Positions 1,576 to 25,775 of a DNA stretch of 32,000 nucleotides are shown here, in pieces. Numbering within the stretch: the first letter of the stretch is position 1; each line of letters starts with the position of its first letter. Source of the stretch: Methanothermobacter thermautotrophicus str. Delta H (GTDB lineage Archaea; Methanobacteriota; Methanobacteria; Methanobacteriales; Methanothermobacteraceae); the NCBI RefSeq assembly GCF_000008645.1, contig NC_000916.1, positions 1,350,001 to 1,382,000 of the forward strand. Direction: 5' to 3'. The notes under the pieces are model-generated. The model was not told the DNA's origin. It did no database searches and saw only the letters and a list, made by a program, of their open reading frames with translations. The position numbers were made by a program, and so were the translations under genes.

Positions 1576-1805
1576 GCATCCACCGTCCCCATTTAATAAC
1601 AATCAGGGTCAATCTACCAATCTTTAAATATTGAACATCTCACATTTATTAGTGTTGGAAATGAAATTAAAACCACGGATGAGTACTGTCATGGCTGTCC
1701 CGGCGGTCCATGGACCGGAAACTCCACCCTCGAGGCAGTCATGGCAGCTATTAAGGTTGATCAGACTTATATCTCACTTCAACTTGAAATATAAGGGTGT
1801 TAAAG

Positions 1806-3161
1806 ATGGAAACTGTTGATAAGGTTGATATGATTAAGAATCATGGCCTGACCGCATCAGAAAATCTTGAAAAATTTCTTAAGAGGATTGAGGCAAAAAA
1901 CGATGACATCAACGCCTTCCTGGAGGTTAGGGGTGAAGAGGCGATTAAGAGGGCTGAGGAGATAGACGCCAGGATAGCCTCCGGCAAGGAGACAGGGAAA
2001 CTGGCGGGCCTGGTGATAGGAGTTAAAAGCAACATCAACGTGGAGGACTTCAACGTATCAGCAGCTTCAAAGACCCTCGAAAATTACACTGGAAGCTACG
2101 ATGCAACTGTTATAAGGCGCATAAAGGAAGAAGACGGTATAATAATTGGCATGACCAACATGGACGAATTCGCTGCCGGGAGTTCAACCGAGACATCATT
2201 CTTTGGCCCAACAGACAATCCAGCAGCCCCCGGGAGGATCCCGGGAGGTTCAAGCGGCGGGAGCGCTGCTGCAGTGGCTGCTGGTATGTGTGACCTGGCA
2301 CTGGGATCAGATACAGGGGGTTCAATAAGGAATCCAGCATCGCACTGCGGTGTAATGGGCTTCAAACCAACCTATGGGGCAGTATCCAGGCAGGGCCTCC
2401 TGGACCTTGCCATGAGCTTTGACCAGATAGGACCCCTGGCAGCAGATGTATCCGGGATCTCACTTGCACTGGATGTCATCTCAGGTTATGACCCGGCAGA
2501 CCCCACAACCCTGGACAGTTCACCGGACCTTGAGGTGGAGAGGGAACTGAAGGGCCTCAGGGTCGGTGTTGTGAGGGAGTTCCTTGAGGTCACAGATGAG
2601 GCAATAGATGAGGTTATTCAGGGGAAACTCGGAGCCATGGAGGATGAGGGCGCCGAGATAGTTGAACTGGATTTTGGATACATAGACCTCTGTCTCCCCA
2701 CCTACTACCTCATAAACTACGTTGAATTCTTTTCAGCCACCAGGAAGTATGACGGCAGAAAGTACGGTCACAGGATAGAGGATGTCTGCGGTTCGGAGGT
2801 CCTCAGGAGGATACATATGGGTTCCTACATCAGTCAGAAGGAACTATCTGGAAAATACTACAAGAGGGCCCTCCAGGCAAGATCCCTCATAAGGAGGGAG
2901 ATAACAGGGCTTCTCAGCCATGTGGACATAATAGCGGGGCCAACGGTTCCAAAGCTACCCCACACACTGGGTGAGGAGCTTGAACCAATGGAGATGTACG
3001 CCTACGATGTCCTCACGGTCATAGCTAACCTTGCAGGTATACCCGCTGCAAGCATACCTGCAGGGGATGTGGGCGGAGTCCCTGTTGGCCTGCAGCTCCA
3101 GGCAAAGCCAGGAGATGATGGCATGATAGTATCGGCCATGAGGGAGATTGCTTCACTGTAA
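1806..3161 (+). CDS. gatA: Asp/Glu-tRNA amidotransferase subunit A (amidase-signature glutaminase)
   Basis: Amidase signature GGSSGGSAAAVAAG...GSDTGGSIRNPA and GatA-like length. ATG at 1806 is preceded by AAGGGTG. The ORF track starts at GTG 1797. Confidence 0.9.
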   Translation: METVDKVDMIKNHGLTASENLEKFLKRIEAKNDDINAFLEVRGEEAIKRAEEIDARIASGKETGKLAGLVIGVKSNINVEDFNVSAASKTLENYTGSYDATVIRRIKEEDGIIIGMTNMDEFAAGSSTETSFFGPTDNPAAPGRIPGGSSGGSAAAVAAGMCDLALGSDTGGSIRNPASHCGVMGFKPTYGAVSRQGLLDLAMSFDQIGPLAADVSGISLALDVISGYDPADPTTLDSSPDLEVERELKGLRVGVVREFLEVTDEAIDEVIQGKLGAMEDEGAEIVELDFGYIDLCLPTYYLINYVEFFSATRKYDGRKYGHRIEDVCGSEVLRRIHMGSYISQKELSGKYYKRALQARSLIRREITGLLSHVDIIAGPTVPKLPHTLGEELEPMEMYAYDVLTVIANLAGIPAASIPAGDVGGVPVGLQLQAKPGDDGMIVSAMREIASL

Positions 3162-3174
3162 GAGAGTGTCCCCC

Positions 3175-4638
3175 ATGAGGATTGGACTCGTCTGTATCAG
3201 GGGATCGGTCCCTGCCTTTGAGAACTTTGGATTTCTCCCCACCGATATAGTTGGAAGCAATGGTCTTGTAAACGGTTCAAGGGCCCACAGGGTCCTGGAC
3301 GGGATCATAATACCAGGGGGAAGTATCGTTGAGTCAGGAAGCCTTTCACCTGAACTTGCATTTGAGATAAGAAGGATGGCATCGGACGGAAAATTTGTCC
3401 TGGGTATATGCTCAGGATTCCAGGCCCTGGCAGAGAGGACCGATATAGGGAGAAAATCGCCATGCCCTGTTTACAGGGAGGGTCTCGGGCTCCTCAACGT
3501 AACATTCCACCCCATGATAAGCAACGACAGGGTGGAGGCCACCATAACCGGCGAGTCCTTCCTGACCTCAGGGATGTCAGGTGAGAGGATAACTGGCTTC
3601 CACTGCCATACCTACGGTGAGATACGTGGTGATGCACCTGAGATAATGAAGTCCCGCATAGTCAGGGCAGACTATCATGAAAGGCCAGGGGAGATCCTAT
3701 CAGGGGTCTGCAGTGATGATGGTAACGTGGCAGGGACCATGGTCCACGGATGCCTCGATGAGAACCAGACCCTTGTCAGTAACATCCTCAAATTCCTTGA
3801 TGCGGATGAAACTGCAAGGGAGAGGATACTTGAAGCCAACAGGAAACTGCGGGAAGCTCTGAGATCTGAGCTCGGGATATCAACGGGGATACGTGTTATG
3901 GATAGGGGCGGGACGAGGGGCACCCCACCAGCCATAATGATAGCATCCACGGGTTCAGACTCCGGCAAAACATTCATATTAACGGGCCTTGCAGGCGCCC
4001 TGAGGAGGAGGGGCCTCAGGGTGGGCGTTATCAAGGTGGGACCCGATGTCAGGGACATAGTCCCGGCCCTCTACCTCATAAAGGAGCCCATGGAGGAGCA
4101 CTCATCCATAAGGATAGGGCGCCTGGGCTGGATGGAGCTCAGGGATGTCCTTGAATCTGTGAGGGGAAGATACGACATAATACTCATCGAGGGCGTTATG
4201 AGCATCCTCACAGGTCTCCTGAACGATATAACACCCTACTCCGGGGCTGAGATTGCCCTGGCAGCAGGTATCCCCCTGATTATGGTGGCAGGTTGCAGCA
4301 AGGGGGGTATAGAGTCTGCGGTGGTTGATCTTGACGCCCACATATCGGTACTTGAGGGACTGGGCCTTGAGGTCTCCTGCGGAATACTCAACAGGGTCTA
4401 TGATATGGATATATTTGAGAGGGCATCAGGCGGAAGGTACCTTGCCATTCCGAGGGTGGAGATGAGTGAGAGGGGCGGCACACCCGAGGTTGAGATAAAA
4501 CTTGAGGACTTCTGCCTGAAGGCCATGGAGACCGTGGAGGAGCACCTTGATGTTGATACCCTCATCAGCTTCGCAAAAAAACCAGAATTCAGGGGTTATA
4601 TGGGCCCTGAAGAAATCAAAAAGGTATTCAGTCCCTGA
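3175..4638 (+). CDS. CobQ/CobB-like glutamine amidotransferase with inverted domain order (N-terminal GATase-3, C-terminal CbiA/DTBS-like P-loop domain)
   Basis: The N-terminal half has IIIPGGS, GICSGFQAL (nucleophile Cys), GLGLLNV and GFHCHTYG motifs of CobB/CobQ-type GATase. The C-terminal half has IASTGSDSGKTFILTGLAGALRRRGLRVGVIKVGPD (P-loop plus KxGPD). ATG at 3175 is 13 nt after the gatA stop. The track start TTG 3148 overlaps gatA. Confidence 0.8.
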   Translation: MRIGLVCIRGSVPAFENFGFLPTDIVGSNGLVNGSRAHRVLDGIIIPGGSIVESGSLSPELAFEIRRMASDGKFVLGICSGFQALAERTDIGRKSPCPVYREGLGLLNVTFHPMISNDRVEATITGESFLTSGMSGERITGFHCHTYGEIRGDAPEIMKSRIVRADYHERPGEILSGVCSDDGNVAGTMVHGCLDENQTLVSNILKFLDADETARERILEANRKLREALRSELGISTGIRVMDRGGTRGTPPAIMIASTGSDSGKTFILTGLAGALRRRGLRVGVIKVGPDVRDIVPALYLIKEPMEEHSSIRIGRLGWMELRDVLESVRGRYDIILIEGVMSILTGLLNDITPYSGAEIALAAGIPLIMVAGCSKGGIESAVVDLDAHISVLEGLGLEVSCGILNRVYDMDIFERASGGRYLAIPRVEMSERGGTPEVEIKLEDFCLKAMETVEEHLDVDTLISFAKKPEFRGYMGPEEIKKVFSP

Positions 4639-4712: not shown

Positions 4713-5438
4713 TTAGATTCCCATATCCTCTTCAGGGATCTCCTCACCCTCAGTTATGGTTATACCCTCCTCGCCACCGATCTCATATGTGAGGAACTGG
4801 AGGGGTGTTTTGGTGCTTCTCATCTTGACTATGTCCATTATCCGCTCCCTGCGACCGGTGTAGGGGTTCTCCCTTCTACCAAGTTTTATGGCGCCGTATA
4901 CCGAGAAGAGAGCAAGTTCATTGAACTCCTTGGAGGTTGCACTGTCCAGTATTATGACGGATGTTATACCCCGCTGTTTGAGCTCATATACGAGGAGATC
5001 AAACTGGTTCCTGAATTCATAGGCTGTGAGTTTGGCTGTGTAGCCACCCAGACTGTCTATGACAACCACCTCGGCCTCGGGGGGTATGTCATGTATTATC
5101 TTGGTGAAGTTGCCCTTCATGGGGTCCATGTCCATGCTTAGCTCTGCCTCGGTTATCCTCGCCCTTATACCTGTAAGTTCTATGAAGTTGAGGAGTCCCT
5201 TCTCCTCCAGCTCCTGGGTGTTCCAGCCGAAGGAGTTTGCCTGTATGTGGAGGTCATTGGCGTCCTCCTCTGCTGTTATGTAGACGGTGTTGTAACCCTC
5301 CATGCAGCTGCTTATGGCAAACCGCAGCCCGAAGATGGTCTTACCACACCCGGGCTCCCCTGTTATCAGAACAGATCTCCCCATGGGAAACCGCCTATGA
5401 TCATCAAGTCCATTGATCCCTATCTTCAGCCTCTCCAT
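4713..5438 (-). CDS. single-domain KaiC/RecA-superfamily ATPase
   Basis: Walker A is GEPGCGKT, Walker B is VVVIDSL, and the GINGLD lead-in is typical of KaiC-like proteins. ATG at 5438 has a GAGGTG SD that overlaps the ribB stop. The track start is GTG 5447. Confidence 0.85.
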
Positions 5439-5449
5439 TATGAACACCT

Positions 5450-19405: not shown

Positions 19406-19447
19406 CATTCAAATTACTTAACAATATATTAATGTTAGGTGAGCACT

Positions 19448-20473
19448 ATGAAAGTTGCAGTTTATGGCGCGGGTAACCAGAAACTTTATGTGGACCAGCT
19501 GAACTTGCCTGAAAAATATGGGGGTGAGGCACCCTACGGTGGAAGCAGAATGGCAATTGAATTTGCAGAGGCCGGACATGACGTTGTACTGGCAGAACCA
19601 GCAAGGGATATGCTGGATGATGCACACTGGAAGGTGGTTGAGGATGCAGGGGTCACAGTAACAGACAACGATGCAGAGGCAGCCAGTGAGGCTGAAATAG
19701 CAGTACTCTTCACACCCTTCGGTAAGAAGACCTTTGAGATAGCAAAGAACATAACAAATCACCTGCCAGAGGGGGCTGTCATAGCAAACACCTGTACGGT
19801 CTCACCTGTGGTACTCTACTACGTACTTGAAAGGGAGCTTAGAAGGGATCGTAAGGACCTGGGTATAGCATCAATGCACCCTGCAGCCGTCCCTGGTACA
19901 CCACAGCACGGCCACTATGTCATAGGGGGTCACTCAAGCAGTGAACTTGACATAGCAACAGATGAACAGATATCAAGATGCGTTGAACTCGCTGAAAGCT
20001 GCGGTAAGGTAGCCTATGTTGTACCAGCCGACGTATCAAGTGCAGTTGCAGATATGGGGTCACTTGTTACAGCGGTCACACTTTCAGGTGTCCTTGACTA
20101 CTACTATGTGGGTACACAGATAATCAGGGCCCCCAAGGAGATGGTTGAAAAGCAGATCCTCATGACACTCCAGACCATAGCTTCACTCGTTGAAACCTCA
20201 GGTGTTAATGGAATGCTCAAGGCCATGAACCCTGAACTCCTTGTGAGGAGCGCTAAATCAATGCACCTCCTTGAGGAGCAGGAGGAACTGGATGCAGCAC
20301 TCAACACCCTATCAGACCTTGATGATGAGGTAAATAAATGGATAGAGAAGGGTGAGATCAGGCACACGGATCTGGTTGCTGCACAGGCCCTTGCAAAGGA
20401 GATAAAGAACCTCATGGGTGGAAAGGCTGCCGAGGGTACAATAAGGCGCTGCATGAGGAAGATGTTTGAATAA
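19448..20473 (+). CDS. hmdIII: H2-forming methylene-tetrahydromethanopterin dehydrogenase paralogue (Hmd-related, HmdIII-type)
   Basis: MKVAVYGAGNQ... has a Rossmann-like N-terminus, a conserved Cys in NTCTVSP (equivalent to the FeGP-ligand Cys of Hmd) and SMHPAAVPGTP. Divergence from canonical Hmd indicates a paralogue. The assignment to III rests on remembered locus order. The track start is GTG 19439. Confidence 0.8.
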   Translation: MKVAVYGAGNQKLYVDQLNLPEKYGGEAPYGGSRMAIEFAEAGHDVVLAEPARDMLDDAHWKVVEDAGVTVTDNDAEAASEAEIAVLFTPFGKKTFEIAKNITNHLPEGAVIANTCTVSPVVLYYVLERELRRDRKDLGIASMHPAAVPGTPQHGHYVIGGHSSSELDIATDEQISRCVELAESCGKVAYVVPADVSSAVADMGSLVTAVTLSGVLDYYYVGTQIIRAPKEMVEKQILMTLQTIASLVETSGVNGMLKAMNPELLVRSAKSMHLLEEQEELDAALNTLSDLDDEVNKWIEKGEIRHTDLVAAQALAKEIKNLMGGKAAEGTIRRCMRKMFE

Positions 20474-20614: not shown

Positions 20615-23600
20615 TCAGGTGACGGTTATTCTCATATTAACCGCCCTGAAGGTCTTTTTTATGTACACGTACCTGTAACCCCTTATGGTGTTGCTGTAGT
20701 TGAGCGTTGCTGATAGTGTGTCGGCTCTGAAGGTCTCTGAGAGTTTTATGGTCCTGGTGTACCTGCTCGGGTTGTAGATCTTCCTCGTTGTCACTATCCT
20801 TGCATCGTATGGGTAGTATCCGATGGTTGCTGAGTAGCTTCTGCCGGGTTTCAGTGTGAACTTGAATGTCCGGTATCCAAGTTTTGCACCGGTTGATGAA
20901 TAAACCGTCACATAGTATGTCACTGTGGTGGTGTACTTTCCTGTATTTCTGAATGTGAAGGAGTATTTTCTTCTGGCCGGGTTAACGTATACTGTGCTGT
21001 TCCTGAGGTTACCCAGACTGAAGGTGTAGACACCGGGTCCGGATAGGTACTGCTGGAAGTTTATGTTTCCTCTCTCCCCGGGTCCGAGTCTGATGGTTTC
21101 GTTCCTTATGAGTGACCCGTTTAGGTAGAATGGTATGCTGAATTCCCCTTCAAGGTCACCACTGTTTTCAATCTCTGCACTGACATTTGCGTTCACTGAC
21201 CCCACAGCGCTTCCCGGTGTAACACTGAATGATCTTATCTCAAGTGTGGCTGGTTTCAGTGCGTTCACATTGATGCCGGGCGGATTATCTATCCACACCG
21301 TGTGGTTGCCCCTCTGCGTTATATTGTATGTGAATGACACTGTGACATCCCCACCGGCAGGCACGTTAACGGTCCTGTTCTGGACATTCACACCGTCAAT
21401 GTAGAGCCTTGCGGTGTAGTTACCGGCAATGTCTCCGATGTTGGTCACCCTTACAGATGCATTGACTCTGAAGGGTATGACTCCGGTGGATGGTGAAACA
21501 GTTAGGCTGTCAACAATGAAGGTTGCGGGTCTTAGAACCCTCACCGTGACCGGGGAAAGGGAATTGACAGTCACCTGGTGCTCACCTGGTTCACTGATAT
21601 CCGCTGTGAAGCTAACAAGCACTGAACCCGGACCTGTGACCCTAACGGTCCTGTTCTGGACATTCACACCGTCAATGTAGAGCCCTGCAGTGTAGTTTCC
21701 AGACCCCTCCTCAGTGGTGCTTACCAGGGCCGTGACTATTATCCTGTGTGGTGAAACACCGGTGAGTGGTGTGGCACTGAGGTTTGAGATTGCAGGTTCA
21801 CTGAGTACCCTCACATCAAGTGGGGTTAGAGATCCTATTCCAGCCAGGTATATTCCGGCATTTTCTATGGTGTGATTAAATGCCACCTGGACGCTTCTAC
21901 CGGCCCCAACTGTAACATTCTTCTCATCCACAGCCAGACCGTTGATGTAGAGGACTGCAGTGTAATTCCCGTCAACCTCGCCGGTGTTCCTGGCAGTGGC
22001 AGTGGCTGTTATGGTAAGAGGGCTGAAACCTGAAGATGGTGTCACGCGCAGATCTGAGAGGGTTATGCTGGCAGGTCTAAGGACACGCACGATTTTACTG
22101 AACTCATTGATTCCCACAGTATGGTTTCCAGGGGTTAGAAGTGTCCCCATGGCGATTTCCCTTGTTTCGCCCGGACTGAGACTCACAATGTTCTCCTGGA
22201 CGACCACACCATCAACCATTAGCCTTGCAGTGAAACCTATAACCAGGTCGTGGGGATTTGTCACGTTCAGGGACGCCCTTACACTTAATGGGGCCGGGCC
22301 TGTCACAGGCGTGACATTGAACCCTGTGATCGTTGGATCAGGCTCAAGGACCCTGATAGTCACATCAGTGCCTGAGTTCAAACGCAGACGGTATTCACCT
22401 GGAAAGGCGAGCTCCTTTTTGAATGAAACCAGCACCGAACTCTTACCAGGGACACTGACGGTTCTGGTTTCCCAGGCTACATCATCAAGGTAGAGCGTCA
22501 CTGCGAAATCACCTGCTAGGTCACCGTTGTTCCTTACTATTGCAGTGACAGTCACGTTGAGTGGTGATTTGCCCTCCACCGGGGAAACTGTAACATTGGA
22601 TAGTGTGAAGTTGGCCTCACTGAGGACCCTGACGGTTCCTGAGACATTATTGTTGAGTGATATCGTGTATAATCCTCTATCAGGAAGGAGTATGCTGGTG
22701 CTGAAGGGTACCGTGCTTTCACCTGGAATATTGAGGACCTTCGTGTGATCGGGAACACCGTTGACGTATATGGTGGCTGTGTAACTCCTTGGATTTGAAT
22801 CGATATTGGTGATCATGGCGCTGACCGTAACCGTCAGTGGTGCTGCTCCGCTCTGGGGTGTCAGTGTGAAGTTTTCTATGTAGAACTTCTCCCCCTCCAT
22901 GACATAGACCAGCTCGGGTTCAAGGTCGTTTATGGTGATCTCATATAGGCCTGCTGCAAGGGTCCTGTTGAAGGATACGGTGGTCCTGCTGCTGGCGTTC
23001 ACGGTGACATTCCTGCTGTCAAGGAGCACCCCGTCAATGTAAAGTTCTGCTGTGTAGCTGTCTGGAAGGTCGCCGTAGTTTACAAGGTCAGCTGTCACAT
23101 TCACCTTCAGGGGCTCCTGGCCACCTGATGGTGTCACCCGGAGGTTCTCTGGGATTATCAGGGGCCCGAGGAATACCCTCACAGTTGCTGGTGGGAAGTT
23201 GTTCACACCCACAGAATATGCCCTGCTGTTTCTCAGGGTGTATTCAAACTCGAAGGGCTCTGTTTCCAGTGAACCAACCTCGACCCACTTTCCAGCAGTC
23301 CTGTAACCGTTTATGTAGAGGTCAAGTCTGTACCACCCTGTGGAATCACCGCAGTTGGTTATGTTACCTCTAAGGGTTACTGTGAGGGGTCCTGTCCCGT
23401 TGAGGGGTGTCACGCTGATGTTGCTTATTATGAATGGTGTGAATCTTGTAAGGAAACCATCTGAGAGTCCTGTGAGATTCTTTTTGCAGGCATCTGGAGT
23501 TACCGTGAAATTTGAGGACCAGGTTTTCCCTGCAACATAGATGTTCTGGTACCTGTCAACCGCCACACCGTAGCCCTGGTCTGCCTCAATGCCCCCCAGG

Positions 23601-24841
23601 TAGGAGCTGTAGAGGACGCCTTTCGGGATGCTGAATTTCATAACGAAGGCATCCACACCACTTAAGGAACTGTCGTATGCTCCGGGTGTTAAGGGGAAGT
23701 TATCTGATCCTGTCCAACCTGTGAGGTAGAGGTTTCCAAGGATGTCCTGTGTGATATCGTTTATTGAGTCGTCTCCGCGCCCACCGAGATAGGTTGAGTA
23801 TTCCACTGAGTAGTCATTGAATACCATGATGAAACCGTCACTGGAGCCGTTCCTTGTTTTCTGGTAGGCGTTTGGTGTCACAGGGAAGTCAGATGAATTG
23901 GTTTTACCTGCGAGGTAAATCCGGGAGTCCCTGGATATAATTGAATAACAGAAATCCGGTCCTGAACCTCCAAGATAGGTTGAATAATCACAATTCAGGT
24001 CTGGAGTGAATCTTGATAGAAATATATCGGTGGTTCCCCTTTTATCACCGGATATGGCATCAAATGTCACTGGAAAGTCATCTGAGTAGGTGTATCCCGT
24101 AATGTATATGTTACCTGCATAGTCAATGGCGATACCCTGGCAGTAGTCGTCCCATGATCCCCCAAAGTATCTTAGATTGACAGGATTGAGGTCCTGGTCG
24201 AACCTGGCAAGAAATGCATCGTATCCACCATGATAGGTCCAGTCTGTCAGTGGAGTTGCGTTTGGGTTGGTCCCAGGCACTCTGGCTGTACCCCCACCCA
24301 GCTCGGATACATTGAGGACGGTTGAAATTGTGTAGCCACTGACGTAAATGTTGCCCTCATAATCGATGGCAAGGCCCTTTGCAACGTCATAGCCTGAGCC
24401 GCCAATGTATACCCTCTTAACTTCTTTGCCTGAGGGGTCTATTTTTGATATGAAGGCATCCGCAACCTTCAGACCGTCATGGTTTATCTCGCCCACAACG
24501 TAGGCGTATCCATCTCCATCTGCAACTATTCTGTGGCCCCAGTCGTCTCCTGATGTGTCAGTTAATATTGTGTGGTATATGACTTCTCTTGTCACGTTAA
24601 ATTTGGTGACGAATACATCCTTGGATCCATTTACATGTGTAGATCCGGTCACATAGATGTACCCTGAGTCGTCCACATAGACGTCACGTGCCTCGTCAAC
24701 GACTTTGTCACCGAGGTATGTTGAATAGTCCACTGTATAGTTTGATTCTGCAGCTACTGTACCCTGCAGTATCAGTAGGAGGAATATGGTGCAAAACAGA
24801 ATAGAAAACCTTTTATATAGGTCTATTTTATCACCTCCCAA
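20615..24841 (-). CDS. secreted surface/adhesin-like protein: signal peptide, ~7 beta-propeller (SBBP-type) blades, 9 CARDB-like repeats and a basic C-terminal module
   Basis: The N-terminus FSILFCTIFLLLILQGTVAA is a signal peptide. About seven copies of YSTYLGG..D.g.giavD..GNIYVtG.T.S.dFPVTp follow. Nine ~90-aa repeats have the pattern ..VTP..G..PL.V.v.a.v.N.GD..G.YtA.LYidGv......V.v.....v.vsF........G.h.v.....v.VRVL. I counted about 40 N-x-S/T sequons by hand. The start is uncertain (see findings). Confidence 0.85.
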   Translation of the reverse strand: MGGDKIDLYKRFSILFCTIFLLLILQGTVAAESNYTVDYSTYLGDKVVDEARDVYVDDSGYIYVTGSTHVNGSKDVFVTKFNVTREVIYHTILTDTSGDDWGHRIVADGDGYAYVVGEINHDGLKVADAFISKIDPSGKEVKRVYIGGSGYDVAKGLAIDYEGNIYVSGYTISTVLNVSELGGGTARVPGTNPNATPLTDWTYHGGYDAFLARFDQDLNPVNLRYFGGSWDDYCQGIAIDYAGNIYITGYTYSDDFPVTFDAISGDKRGTTDIFLSRFTPDLNCDYSTYLGGSGPDFCYSIISRDSRIYLAGKTNSSDFPVTPNAYQKTRNGSSDGFIMVFNDYSVEYSTYLGGRGDDSINDITQDILGNLYLTGWTGSDNFPLTPGAYDSSLSGVDAFVMKFSIPKGVLYSSYLGGIEADQGYGVAVDRYQNIYVAGKTWSSNFTVTPDACKKNLTGLSDGFLTRFTPFIISNISVTPLNGTGPLTVTLRGNITNCGDSTGWYRLDLYINGYRTAGKWVEVGSLETEPFEFEYTLRNSRAYSVGVNNFPPATVRVFLGPLIIPENLRVTPSGGQEPLKVNVTADLVNYGDLPDSYTAELYIDGVLLDSRNVTVNASSRTTVSFNRTLAAGLYEITINDLEPELVYVMEGEKFYIENFTLTPQSGAAPLTVTVSAMITNIDSNPRSYTATIYVNGVPDHTKVLNIPGESTVPFSTSILLPDRGLYTISLNNNVSGTVRVLSEANFTLSNVTVSPVEGKSPLNVTVTAIVRNNGDLAGDFAVTLYLDDVAWETRTVSVPGKSSVLVSFKKELAFPGEYRLRLNSGTDVTIRVLEPDPTITGFNVTPVTGPAPLSVRASLNVTNPHDLVIGFTARLMVDGVVVQENIVSLSPGETREIAMGTLLTPGNHTVGINEFSKIVRVLRPASITLSDLRVTPSSGFSPLTITATATARNTGEVDGNYTAVLYINGLAVDEKNVTVGAGRSVQVAFNHTIENAGIYLAGIGSLTPLDVRVLSEPAISNLSATPLTGVSPHRIIVTALVSTTEEGSGNYTAGLYIDGVNVQNRTVRVTGPGSVLVSFTADISEPGEHQVTVNSLSPVTVRVLRPATFIVDSLTVSPSTGVIPFRVNASVRVTNIGDIAGNYTARLYIDGVNVQNRTVNVPAGGDVTVSFTYNITQRGNHTVWIDNPPGINVNALKPATLEIRSFSVTPGSAVGSVNANVSAEIENSGDLEGEFSIPFYLNGSLIRNETIRLGPGERGNINFQQYLSGPGVYTFSLGNLRNSTVYVNPARRKYSFTFRNTGKYTTTVTYYVTVYSSTGAKLGYRTFKFTLKPGRSYSATIGYYPYDARIVTTRKIYNPSRYTRTIKLSETFRADTLSATLNYSNTIRGYRYVYIKKTFRAVNMRITVT
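20978..23434 (-). repeat. nine tandem ~276-nt coding repeats (CARDB-like domains) inside the surface-protein gene
   Basis: Periodicity is visible in the protein sequence. It is also visible at DNA level as a 42-nt perfect repeat (21367-21408 versus 21643-21684), exactly 276 nt apart. Confidence 0.8.
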
Positions 24842-25151: not shown

Positions 25152-25775
25152 TCAGAGGACAACGAGGATGGACATGTAACTGAATTCAGATTCACTCACA
25201 TCCCTCAGTGTTGATTTCAGGACCCTCTCATCGGGATAGCTGAGCCTTTCACAGACAGCAACCCTCCTTTCAGGGTCAAGACCGCATTCAATGAGGAATG
25301 CTGCTGTCTTTGATGGATTCCTTGAGGGCAGGATTATGGTTGGCCTCCCATTATCAATTACATCCAGGATCCCCTCCTCGCCACGTCCATGAAGGGTGAT
25401 GACATCTGCATCGTCCCAGGGTATCAGCAGCCTCGCAGCACATAGCTGGATTGAGCTGATTCCAGGCACCACCTTCACCCTCACCGGGAGTCCACGGGAG
25501 GATATTATCCTTTTCAGTGGTTTGAGGACCCCTGAAAATCCAGGGTCGCCTGTGGAGAGCACGGAGACCTCCATGGCGATTGCAAGTTCAGCAGCCCTTC
25601 CTAACTTCTCATCCATATCCCTGGCACCGAGGACCACGGTTTTTCTGGCGGATGGAAAAAGTTCAAGGGCCCTGCGACTTCCAAATACAACTTCTGAGTT
25701 CATAACCACATTTTTTGCAGCGGGTGTGATGTAATCCGGCGATCCTGGACCTATTCCCACTATGTTCAGAGTCAT
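25152..25775 (-). CDS. cbiE: cobalt-precorrin-7 (C5)-methyltransferase / precorrin-6Y methylase CbiE
   Basis: Tetrapyrrole methylase fold with IVGIGPGSPDYIT and VLSTGDPGFSG. The ~207-aa size is typical of CbiE. Confidence 0.85.
   Translation of the reverse strand: MTLNIVGIGPGSPDYITPAAKNVVMNSEVVFGSRRALELFPSARKTVVLGARDMDEKLGRAAELAIAMEVSVLSTGDPGFSGVLKPLKRIISSRGLPVRVKVVPGISSIQLCAARLLIPWDDADVITLHGRGEEGILDVIDNGRPTIILPSRNPSKTAAFLIECGLDPERRVAVCERLSYPDERVLKSTLRDVSESEFSYMSILVVL

Follow-up and report, generated by a model that had tools for sequence, protein, structure and literature searches.

The DNA that we analysed (hereafter the window) is a stretch of 32,000 nucleotides from Methanothermobacter thermautotrophicus str. 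Delta H (NC_000916.1, positions 1,350,001 to 1,382,000, forward strand). Near its start, directly downstream of gatA, lies a gene of the PRK06278 family which we take, from its position, to be MTH1497; the order of genes in the window agrees with the M. thermautotrophicus locus numbers given in PMC3087415. The comparative evidence presented here makes it very probable that its product is a corrin amidase in the general sense. A named model of the family is already public and the architecture is a variant of a known enzyme family; what is new is the comparative evidence for a role. The features of the gene, and its upstream neighbour, are as follows.

3175..4638, plus strand: PRK06278-family gene, open frame of 487 amino acids, full-length NCBIfam match
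3175..3804, plus strand: N-terminal class I glutaminase (GATase_3) domain, nearest to the CbiP/CobQ glutaminase
3409..3411, plus strand: Cys79 nucleophile (GICSGFQ), invariant in the family alignment
3601..3609, plus strand: His143-Cys-His145 (GFHCH), equivalent to CobQ GYELH and distinct from the catalytic His
3745..3747, plus strand: His191, catalytic-type His (GTMVHG), aligning with CobQ GTYFHG
3805..3921, plus strand: linker, a helix and a variable, often low-complexity stretch between the domains
3922..4635, plus strand: C-terminal dethiobiotin-synthetase-type P-loop synthetase domain, nearest to CbiA/CfbB/DsrN
3952..3972, plus strand: P-loop GSDSGKT (G260-T266)
4033..4056, plus strand: KVGPDVRD motif (K287, D291, R293, D294), CbiA equivalent KVGPDYID
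4189..4215, plus strand: EGVMSILTG motif (E339, T346), CbiA equivalent EGVMGLFDG
1797..3161, plus strand: gatA, upstream neighbour, a synteny confined to the lineage and with no part in function

The gene starts 13 nucleotides after the gatA stop at 3161, the spacing given by an earlier reading made from the sequence alone. A TTG at 3148 would open a longer frame, and homologues start at the ATG at 3175. Our promoter and terminator scan returned signals at chance level only.

Pfam places GATase_3 at residues 35-198 (E-value 3.6e-14) and the CbiA/AAA_26 P-loop at residues 253-293, an order opposite to that of CbiA and CbiP. The AlphaFold model (predicted local distance difference test (pLDDT) 92.8, predicted template modelling score (pTM) 0.92) has two folded domains with a helix at residues 212-230 between them, so that both the reversed order and the helical linker proposed by the sequence-only reading are confirmed. 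The best Foldseek matches include class I glutamine amidotransferases (PurQ, GatD, HisH) and dethiobiotin synthetase (3of5); no full-length solved relative was found in the PDB. The protein combines a dethiobiotin-synthetase-type P-loop domain bearing Mg-ATP residues with a class I glutaminase bearing Cys and His, the pair that defines the CobB/CobQ superfamily. Galperin and Grishin are said to have given an account of these domains in 2000.

Within that superfamily, the protein counts as a full PRK06278 member (NF004921; 635.5 bits for a cut-off of 354, over residues 1-486) and falls short of the CobB models (62 versus 254 and 34 versus 261 bits, the domain order also being reversed), the CbiP/CobQ models (79 versus 273 and 60 versus 310 bits, the KxQNM synthetase signature being absent) and the CfbB model NF033195 (30 versus 560 bits). 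Its halves have different nearest relatives: the glutaminase half reaches 50-72 bits with CbiP, compared with 10-16 with CbiA, and the synthetase half reaches 69-72 bits with CbiA, compared with 31-38 with CbiP. The same split appears in profile-profile E-values, and the glutaminase domain is 34% identical over 163 amino acids to the CobQ of the same genome. Quick trees of both domains set the family apart as its own clade, with subclades that follow lineage. The synthetase clade is separate from CbiA (Shimodaira-Hasegawa-like approximate likelihood ratio test, 99) and closer to CbiA than to CbiP in a tree that carries a long-branch warning, and the glutaminase tree, from which the real GatD sequences dropped out, is silent on GatD. 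Because the two halves have different relatives, the protein is an old chimera of a CbiP-like glutaminase and a CbiA-like synthetase. The 'circularly permuted' enzyme of the sequence-only reading is therefore right as to domain order and inexact as to permutation of a single gene. Such a protein could have arisen if a CbiP glutaminase and a CbiA synthetase became fused, for instance across a tandem cbiP-cbiA pair.

The PRK06278 family name appears to have been inherited through homology, and database names for members vary ('cobyric acid synthase' and 'AAA family ATPase' are also used). Searches of the literature by locus tag and by family name found no experiment or paper on the family, the gene is not mentioned in MjCyc, and MMP1477/1478 of PMC8479958 could be assigned to neither paralogue.

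Conservation was counted across 245 family sequences. C79, H145, H191, G264, K265, K287, D294 and E339 are invariant in all of them. Once four degenerate copies are set aside, so are T266, D291, R293, M342, E380 and E438, with T346 and P437 near-invariant. The nucleophile motif GICSGFQ had been recognised from the sequence as intact, in keeping with the invariance of Cys79. The GFHCHTYG motif noted beside it is indeed present, but its His is not the catalytic one: GFHCH corresponds to CobQ GYELH, with His replacing Glu, and it is H191 that lines up with the CobQ motif GTYFHG. The synthetase half shares with CbiA/CobB the GKT, KVGxD-x-x-D and EGxM motifs. Two highly divergent members, P0148 and P0156 (L102), keep the Cys and have an absent or altered His motif; P0156 is flanked by a membrane hydrogenase operon on one side and, on the other, by a gene with a 3'-phosphoadenosine 5'-phosphosulfate (PAPS)-reductase domain.

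The reversed architecture was found in archaea only in the searches that we made. The gene is present in 273 of 301 Methanobacteriota genomes, being near-universal in Methanobacteria, and in M. jannaschii and throughout Methanococcales; it also occurs in Bathyarchaeia, Hydrothermarchaeales and Vulcanisaeta, and in 31 of 401 Thermoproteota genomes overall. It has no match in M. acetivorans, the sole representative of class II methanogens among our controls, or in 12 other control genomes. This distribution bears on a partnership with GatA and on pseudomurein peptide amidation by analogy with MurT/GatD, the latter being a candidate of the sequence-only reading. The closeness to gatA, 13 nucleotides here, is conserved in Methanobacteria, and RNA-seq contigs starting at about 1770 span both genes, although contigs cannot show a single transcript, its level or operon structure. 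However, gatA adjoins the gene at 24 of 30 and 22 of 34 loci, every one of them in Methanobacteria, and at none of 30 Thermoproteota loci. GatD comes up among the structural matches of the glutaminase domain, but the protein has a CbiA-type synthetase and no Mur-ligase domain, and its distribution is independent of pseudomurein. MurT and GatD are separate genes in two genomes that lack the family and were not found in two others, so there is no tracking between the two systems. Since gatA is near the gene in Methanobacteria only, and since the family occurs in lineages without pseudomurein (Methanococcales, Bathyarchaeia, Vulcanisaeta), we dismiss both the GatA partnership and the pseudomurein role as barely credible. 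Bacterial-type murT-gatD pairs do occur in two pseudomurein-bearing methanogens, M. ruminantium M1 (L087) and G145 (L094); no GatD was found in the M. thermautotrophicus genome.

In Bathyarchaeia, and independently on two further contigs, the genomic context of the gene is that of corrin synthesis. In Bathyarchaeia it heads an operon sirC-hemB-(hemL)-hemC-cobA-hemD, running on in some genomes to cobD-cbiB and divergent from hemA-cbiX/C-D-E-T-L-F-G-H. The ring gene cbiD is present in 18 of 151 Bathyarchaeia genomes, of which 17 carry the PRK06278 gene 3-4 kb away, and all 17 carriers in this sample have cbiD. Canonical CbiA is absent from 15 of these 17. In the 18th cbiD-positive genome (G362), a canonical cbiA takes the place of the gene as the first member of this operon, and a cbiP-cbiB-cbiZ-cobS-cobY operon lies at another site. 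A Hydrothermarchaeales contig has the gene divergent from cobD-cbiP-cbiB, and no canonical cbiA was found in that metagenome-assembled genome (MAG); most of the 38 genomes of its class have CbiP and a canonical-type copy. On a further contig (L103) the gene follows cbiG and tetrapyrrole methylases. Tetrapyrrole amidation, one of the candidates named by the sequence-only reading, is thus supported by context across archaea, the exact substrate being what we infer from it.

Exchange with cbiA, seen in two Methanobacteriaceae genera in which the gene is lost or degraded, points the same way. In each of the 50 Methanobacteria genomes tested that have the PRK06278 gene intact, cbiD is present and the canonical copy number is exactly one. 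M. thermautotrophicus has a separate CobQ and a single canonical CbiA-family gene, which passes the CfbB cut-off (646 versus 560). In the M. ruminantium clade, the 18 genomes without the gene all have a second cbiA, near cbiD wherever both are assembled. This second cbiA and the cbi genes are listed as bacterial transfers in PMC2812497, and the CbiP of the clade stays of native type. A long-branched copy without D291, R293, M342 and T346 persists in two early members of this clade. The degenerating copies of the early M. ruminantium clade (L144, L145, P0127, P0128) have intact glutaminase residues and have lost synthetase residues; they are possibly glutaminase-only remnants. The genus of Ca. 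Methanovirga has the gene in none of six genomes: an extra cbiA accompanies cbiD in two of them, a single copy is present in three that lack cbiD, and one has none. We also considered a link between the gene and cofactors of CO2 reduction, taking the lacking genus as Methanosphaera; this was ruled out, as no MtaB was found and the genome G047 is M. ruminantium M1.

Outside the Methanobacteria, a canonical copy that accompanies the gene often lies in another setting: beside cfbA, cfbD and cfbE in G646, beside dsrAB in G703, and in the sat/apr cluster in Vulcanisaeta, the ring cluster of V. distributa being without cbiA. G646 (G646:C24, L220, L169, L274) is a 1.4 Mb Thermoproteota MAG with a cfbA-cfbE-cfbD-cfbB cluster accompanied by hemA and sirC; its PRK06278 copy clusters with those of Bathyarchaeia, and the MAG is likely of an MCR-bearing lineage. 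Two small Thermoproteota genomes, G703 (L217, on G703:C6) and G790 (L191), have divergent dsrA/dsrB, a DsrN-type amidase and further dsr-like genes.

The gene is associated with corrin ring genes and exchanges with cbiA, as expected of a CbiA/CobB-type enzyme. Because of the corrin-cluster context, the co-occurrence with cbiD, the exchange with cbiA and the CbiA-like synthetase half, we propose that it is probably the cobyrinate a,c-diamide synthase (CbiA step) of Methanobacteria, Methanococci, some Bathyarchaeia and some other Thermoproteota. It would differ from CbiA/CobB proper in its reversed order, CbiP-type glutaminase, changed substrate-side residues and separate clade. Conversely, the protein could amidate (Ni-)sirohydrochlorin or siroheme, in the manner of CfbB or DsrN, leaving cobalamin to the canonical copy. 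CfbB and DsrN are members of this family too (PMC10504309) and share its chemistry on tetrapyrrole side chains, and the Bathyarchaeia gene shares its operon with sirC and hem genes. However, CfbB and DsrN have the canonical order and are the coexisting paralogues found in cfb or dsr clusters; methanogens that lost the gene retain their native canonical copy, and their requirement for F430 persists; this canonical type has a CfbB-level score and stands in the cfb cluster of G646; and in Bathyarchaeia the gene tracks cbiD. We consider this assignment quite improbable.

Several observations weigh against the CbiA step. Four Methanobacteria MAGs that are 87-95% complete (G116, G126, G175, G280) have cbiD and one canonical copy and lack the gene. 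Conversely, no cbiD was found in ten carriers, including the complete Vulcanisaeta genome G593, and in five Bathyarchaeia the gene is accompanied by a canonical CbiA-type gene that lies away from the cbi cluster. The swap in the M. ruminantium clade does not alone single out cbiA, the whole ring cluster having been replaced. Related genomes are not independent, so that the counts represent about four to five events rather than hundreds, and most of the genomes are incomplete MAGs. Within the window itself, no corrin gene adjoins the PRK06278 gene. Finally, residues beside the ATP site are unlike those of CbiA (Tyr replaced by Val/Ile, Ile by an invariant Arg, and Asp by Thr), and for this reason regiospecificity may differ from that of CbiA.

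These altered residues would also suit an enzyme of corrinoid repair or salvage, or of modified corrinoids, with imported or partly de-amidated corrinoids as substrates in place of cobyrinate made de novo. Such a role would fit carriers that retain the gene without cbiD, beside cbiZ-cbiB (G788), cobD-cbiB (G305) or an ATP-binding cassette (ABC) ATPase gene (G768). Yet the protein is the sole corrin amidase in most ring-synthesising Bathyarchaeia, its gene is co-directional with hem genes, and it exchanges place with cbiA, all of which make salvage an unlikely function.

Is the CbiA step the only one catalysed? Canonical CbiP is found in none of about 29 Bathyarchaeia carriers and the gene in none of ten CbiP genomes, the two never occurring together in this group. 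In a single-chromosome genome (G302) that has a ring cluster as well as cbiB and cobS in two copies each, the PRK06278 protein is the sole GATase_3/AAA_26 amidase. Together with the CbiP-like glutaminase half, this raises the possibility of a broad corrin amidase which, in Bathyarchaeia at least, makes all six amides (the jobs of CbiA and CbiP) or mainly those at b, d, e and g, a view partly compatible with the CbiA step. To our knowledge, every described cobamide pathway keeps CbiA and CbiP as separate enzymes. However, CbiP is kept alongside the gene in Methanobacteria, Vulcanisaeta, G703 and the Hydrothermarchaeales contig, and the synthetase half is CbiA-like and lacks KxQNM. The gap could also be filled by a DUF71-B12 (Dph6-like) ATP pyrophosphatase, whose gene many genomes without CbiP have in their btu-cobT-cobS-cobY operon. 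We regard the broad amidase as a tentative alternative. In CbiP-less carriers the enzyme may make all six amides, another ligase may make four, or the corrinoids may be under-amidated. It is conceivable, though we lean against it, that the family forms a third line of corrin amidases, old and archaeal, a reversed union of CbiP glutaminase and CbiA synthetase, which in Bathyarchaeia by itself converts cobyrinate to cobyric acid.

The DUF71-B12 gene was seen in btuFCD-cobT-cobS-cobY operons of CbiP-less Bathyarchaeia and G646 (L266-L270, L274-L277, L285), is absent from the CbiP operons examined, and adjoins an asparagine-synthase-like gene in G646 and G456. The DUF71-B12 group has been proposed as a CbiZ substitute (PMC3541065), and the cobS-linked protein is a possible stand-in for CbiP or CbiZ. 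Since the operons that contain it also mostly lack cbiZ, it need not explain the absence of CbiP. One genome (G380) has cbiD, the PRK06278 gene and a canonical copy, and neither CbiP nor, near cobS, a DUF71-B12-type protein was found in it. The Dph6-like gene beside the second cbiB of G302 was rejected as a general stand-in for CbiP, as a close match was found in only one other genome; the cobS-linked paralogue stays a candidate. Bathyarchaeia carriers (G302, G303, G305, G380, G425 and others) usually carry both cobS and cbiB in duplicate. Of these, the second cobS-cobY pair adjoins epimerase-, prenyltransferase- and radical-S-adenosylmethionine (SAM)-like genes, and the second cbiB adjoins B12-binding radical SAM genes; these second sets may belong to a different pathway, lipid modification being one example.

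Returning to the CbiA step, a mechanism can be proposed by analogy with the CobB/CobQ family, whose chemistry involves an acyl-phosphate intermediate. Cys79 and His191 would hydrolyse glutamine, the ammonia would pass through a putative channel to the C-terminal synthetase domain, and Mg-ATP held at GKT, D291, D294 and E339 would activate a side-chain carboxylate, presumably a or c, as the acyl-phosphate, which ammonia would then displace to give the amide. Attack of glutamine-derived ammonia on an ATP-activated side-chain carboxylate is the established scheme in this family (PMC7242693). The canonical CbiA-family copy would thereby be left for F430 (as CfbB) in class I methanogens, or for siroheme elsewhere.

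Class I methanogens need two a,c-amidations, for B12 and for F430, and have one canonical gene, which Kaster et al. (PMC3087415) list as CbiA and which NCBIfam, unlike that listing, scores as CfbB. If our proposal is right, the PRK06278 family supplies the missing second enzyme. Predictions of B12 synthesis in Bathyarchaeia would also change, as both amidation steps look blocked when sought by canonical CbiA and CbiP only. A one-enzyme route to cobyric acid, if true, would replace two enzymes; it would be new pathway chemistry and of use in making B12. The protein is also a possible target for methanogen inhibitors, with the caveat that the M. ruminantium clade has no working copy.

Elsewhere in the window we noted three ordinary genes: a 1408-amino-acid SBBP/CARDB surface protein (20615-24841, minus strand), an Hmd paralogue (19439-20473, plus strand) and a tetrapyrrole methylase (25152-25775, minus strand; cbiE according to PMC3087415). 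Next to the PRK06278 gene, a kaiC-like gene (4713-5447, minus strand) shows an extra G after position 5384 in four of four RNA-seq runs from three studies, and its natural start (MERLKIG...) sits in a different frame of the window sequence. Because of these two observations, the reference probably carries a one-base error at 5384 that splits the start of this gene.
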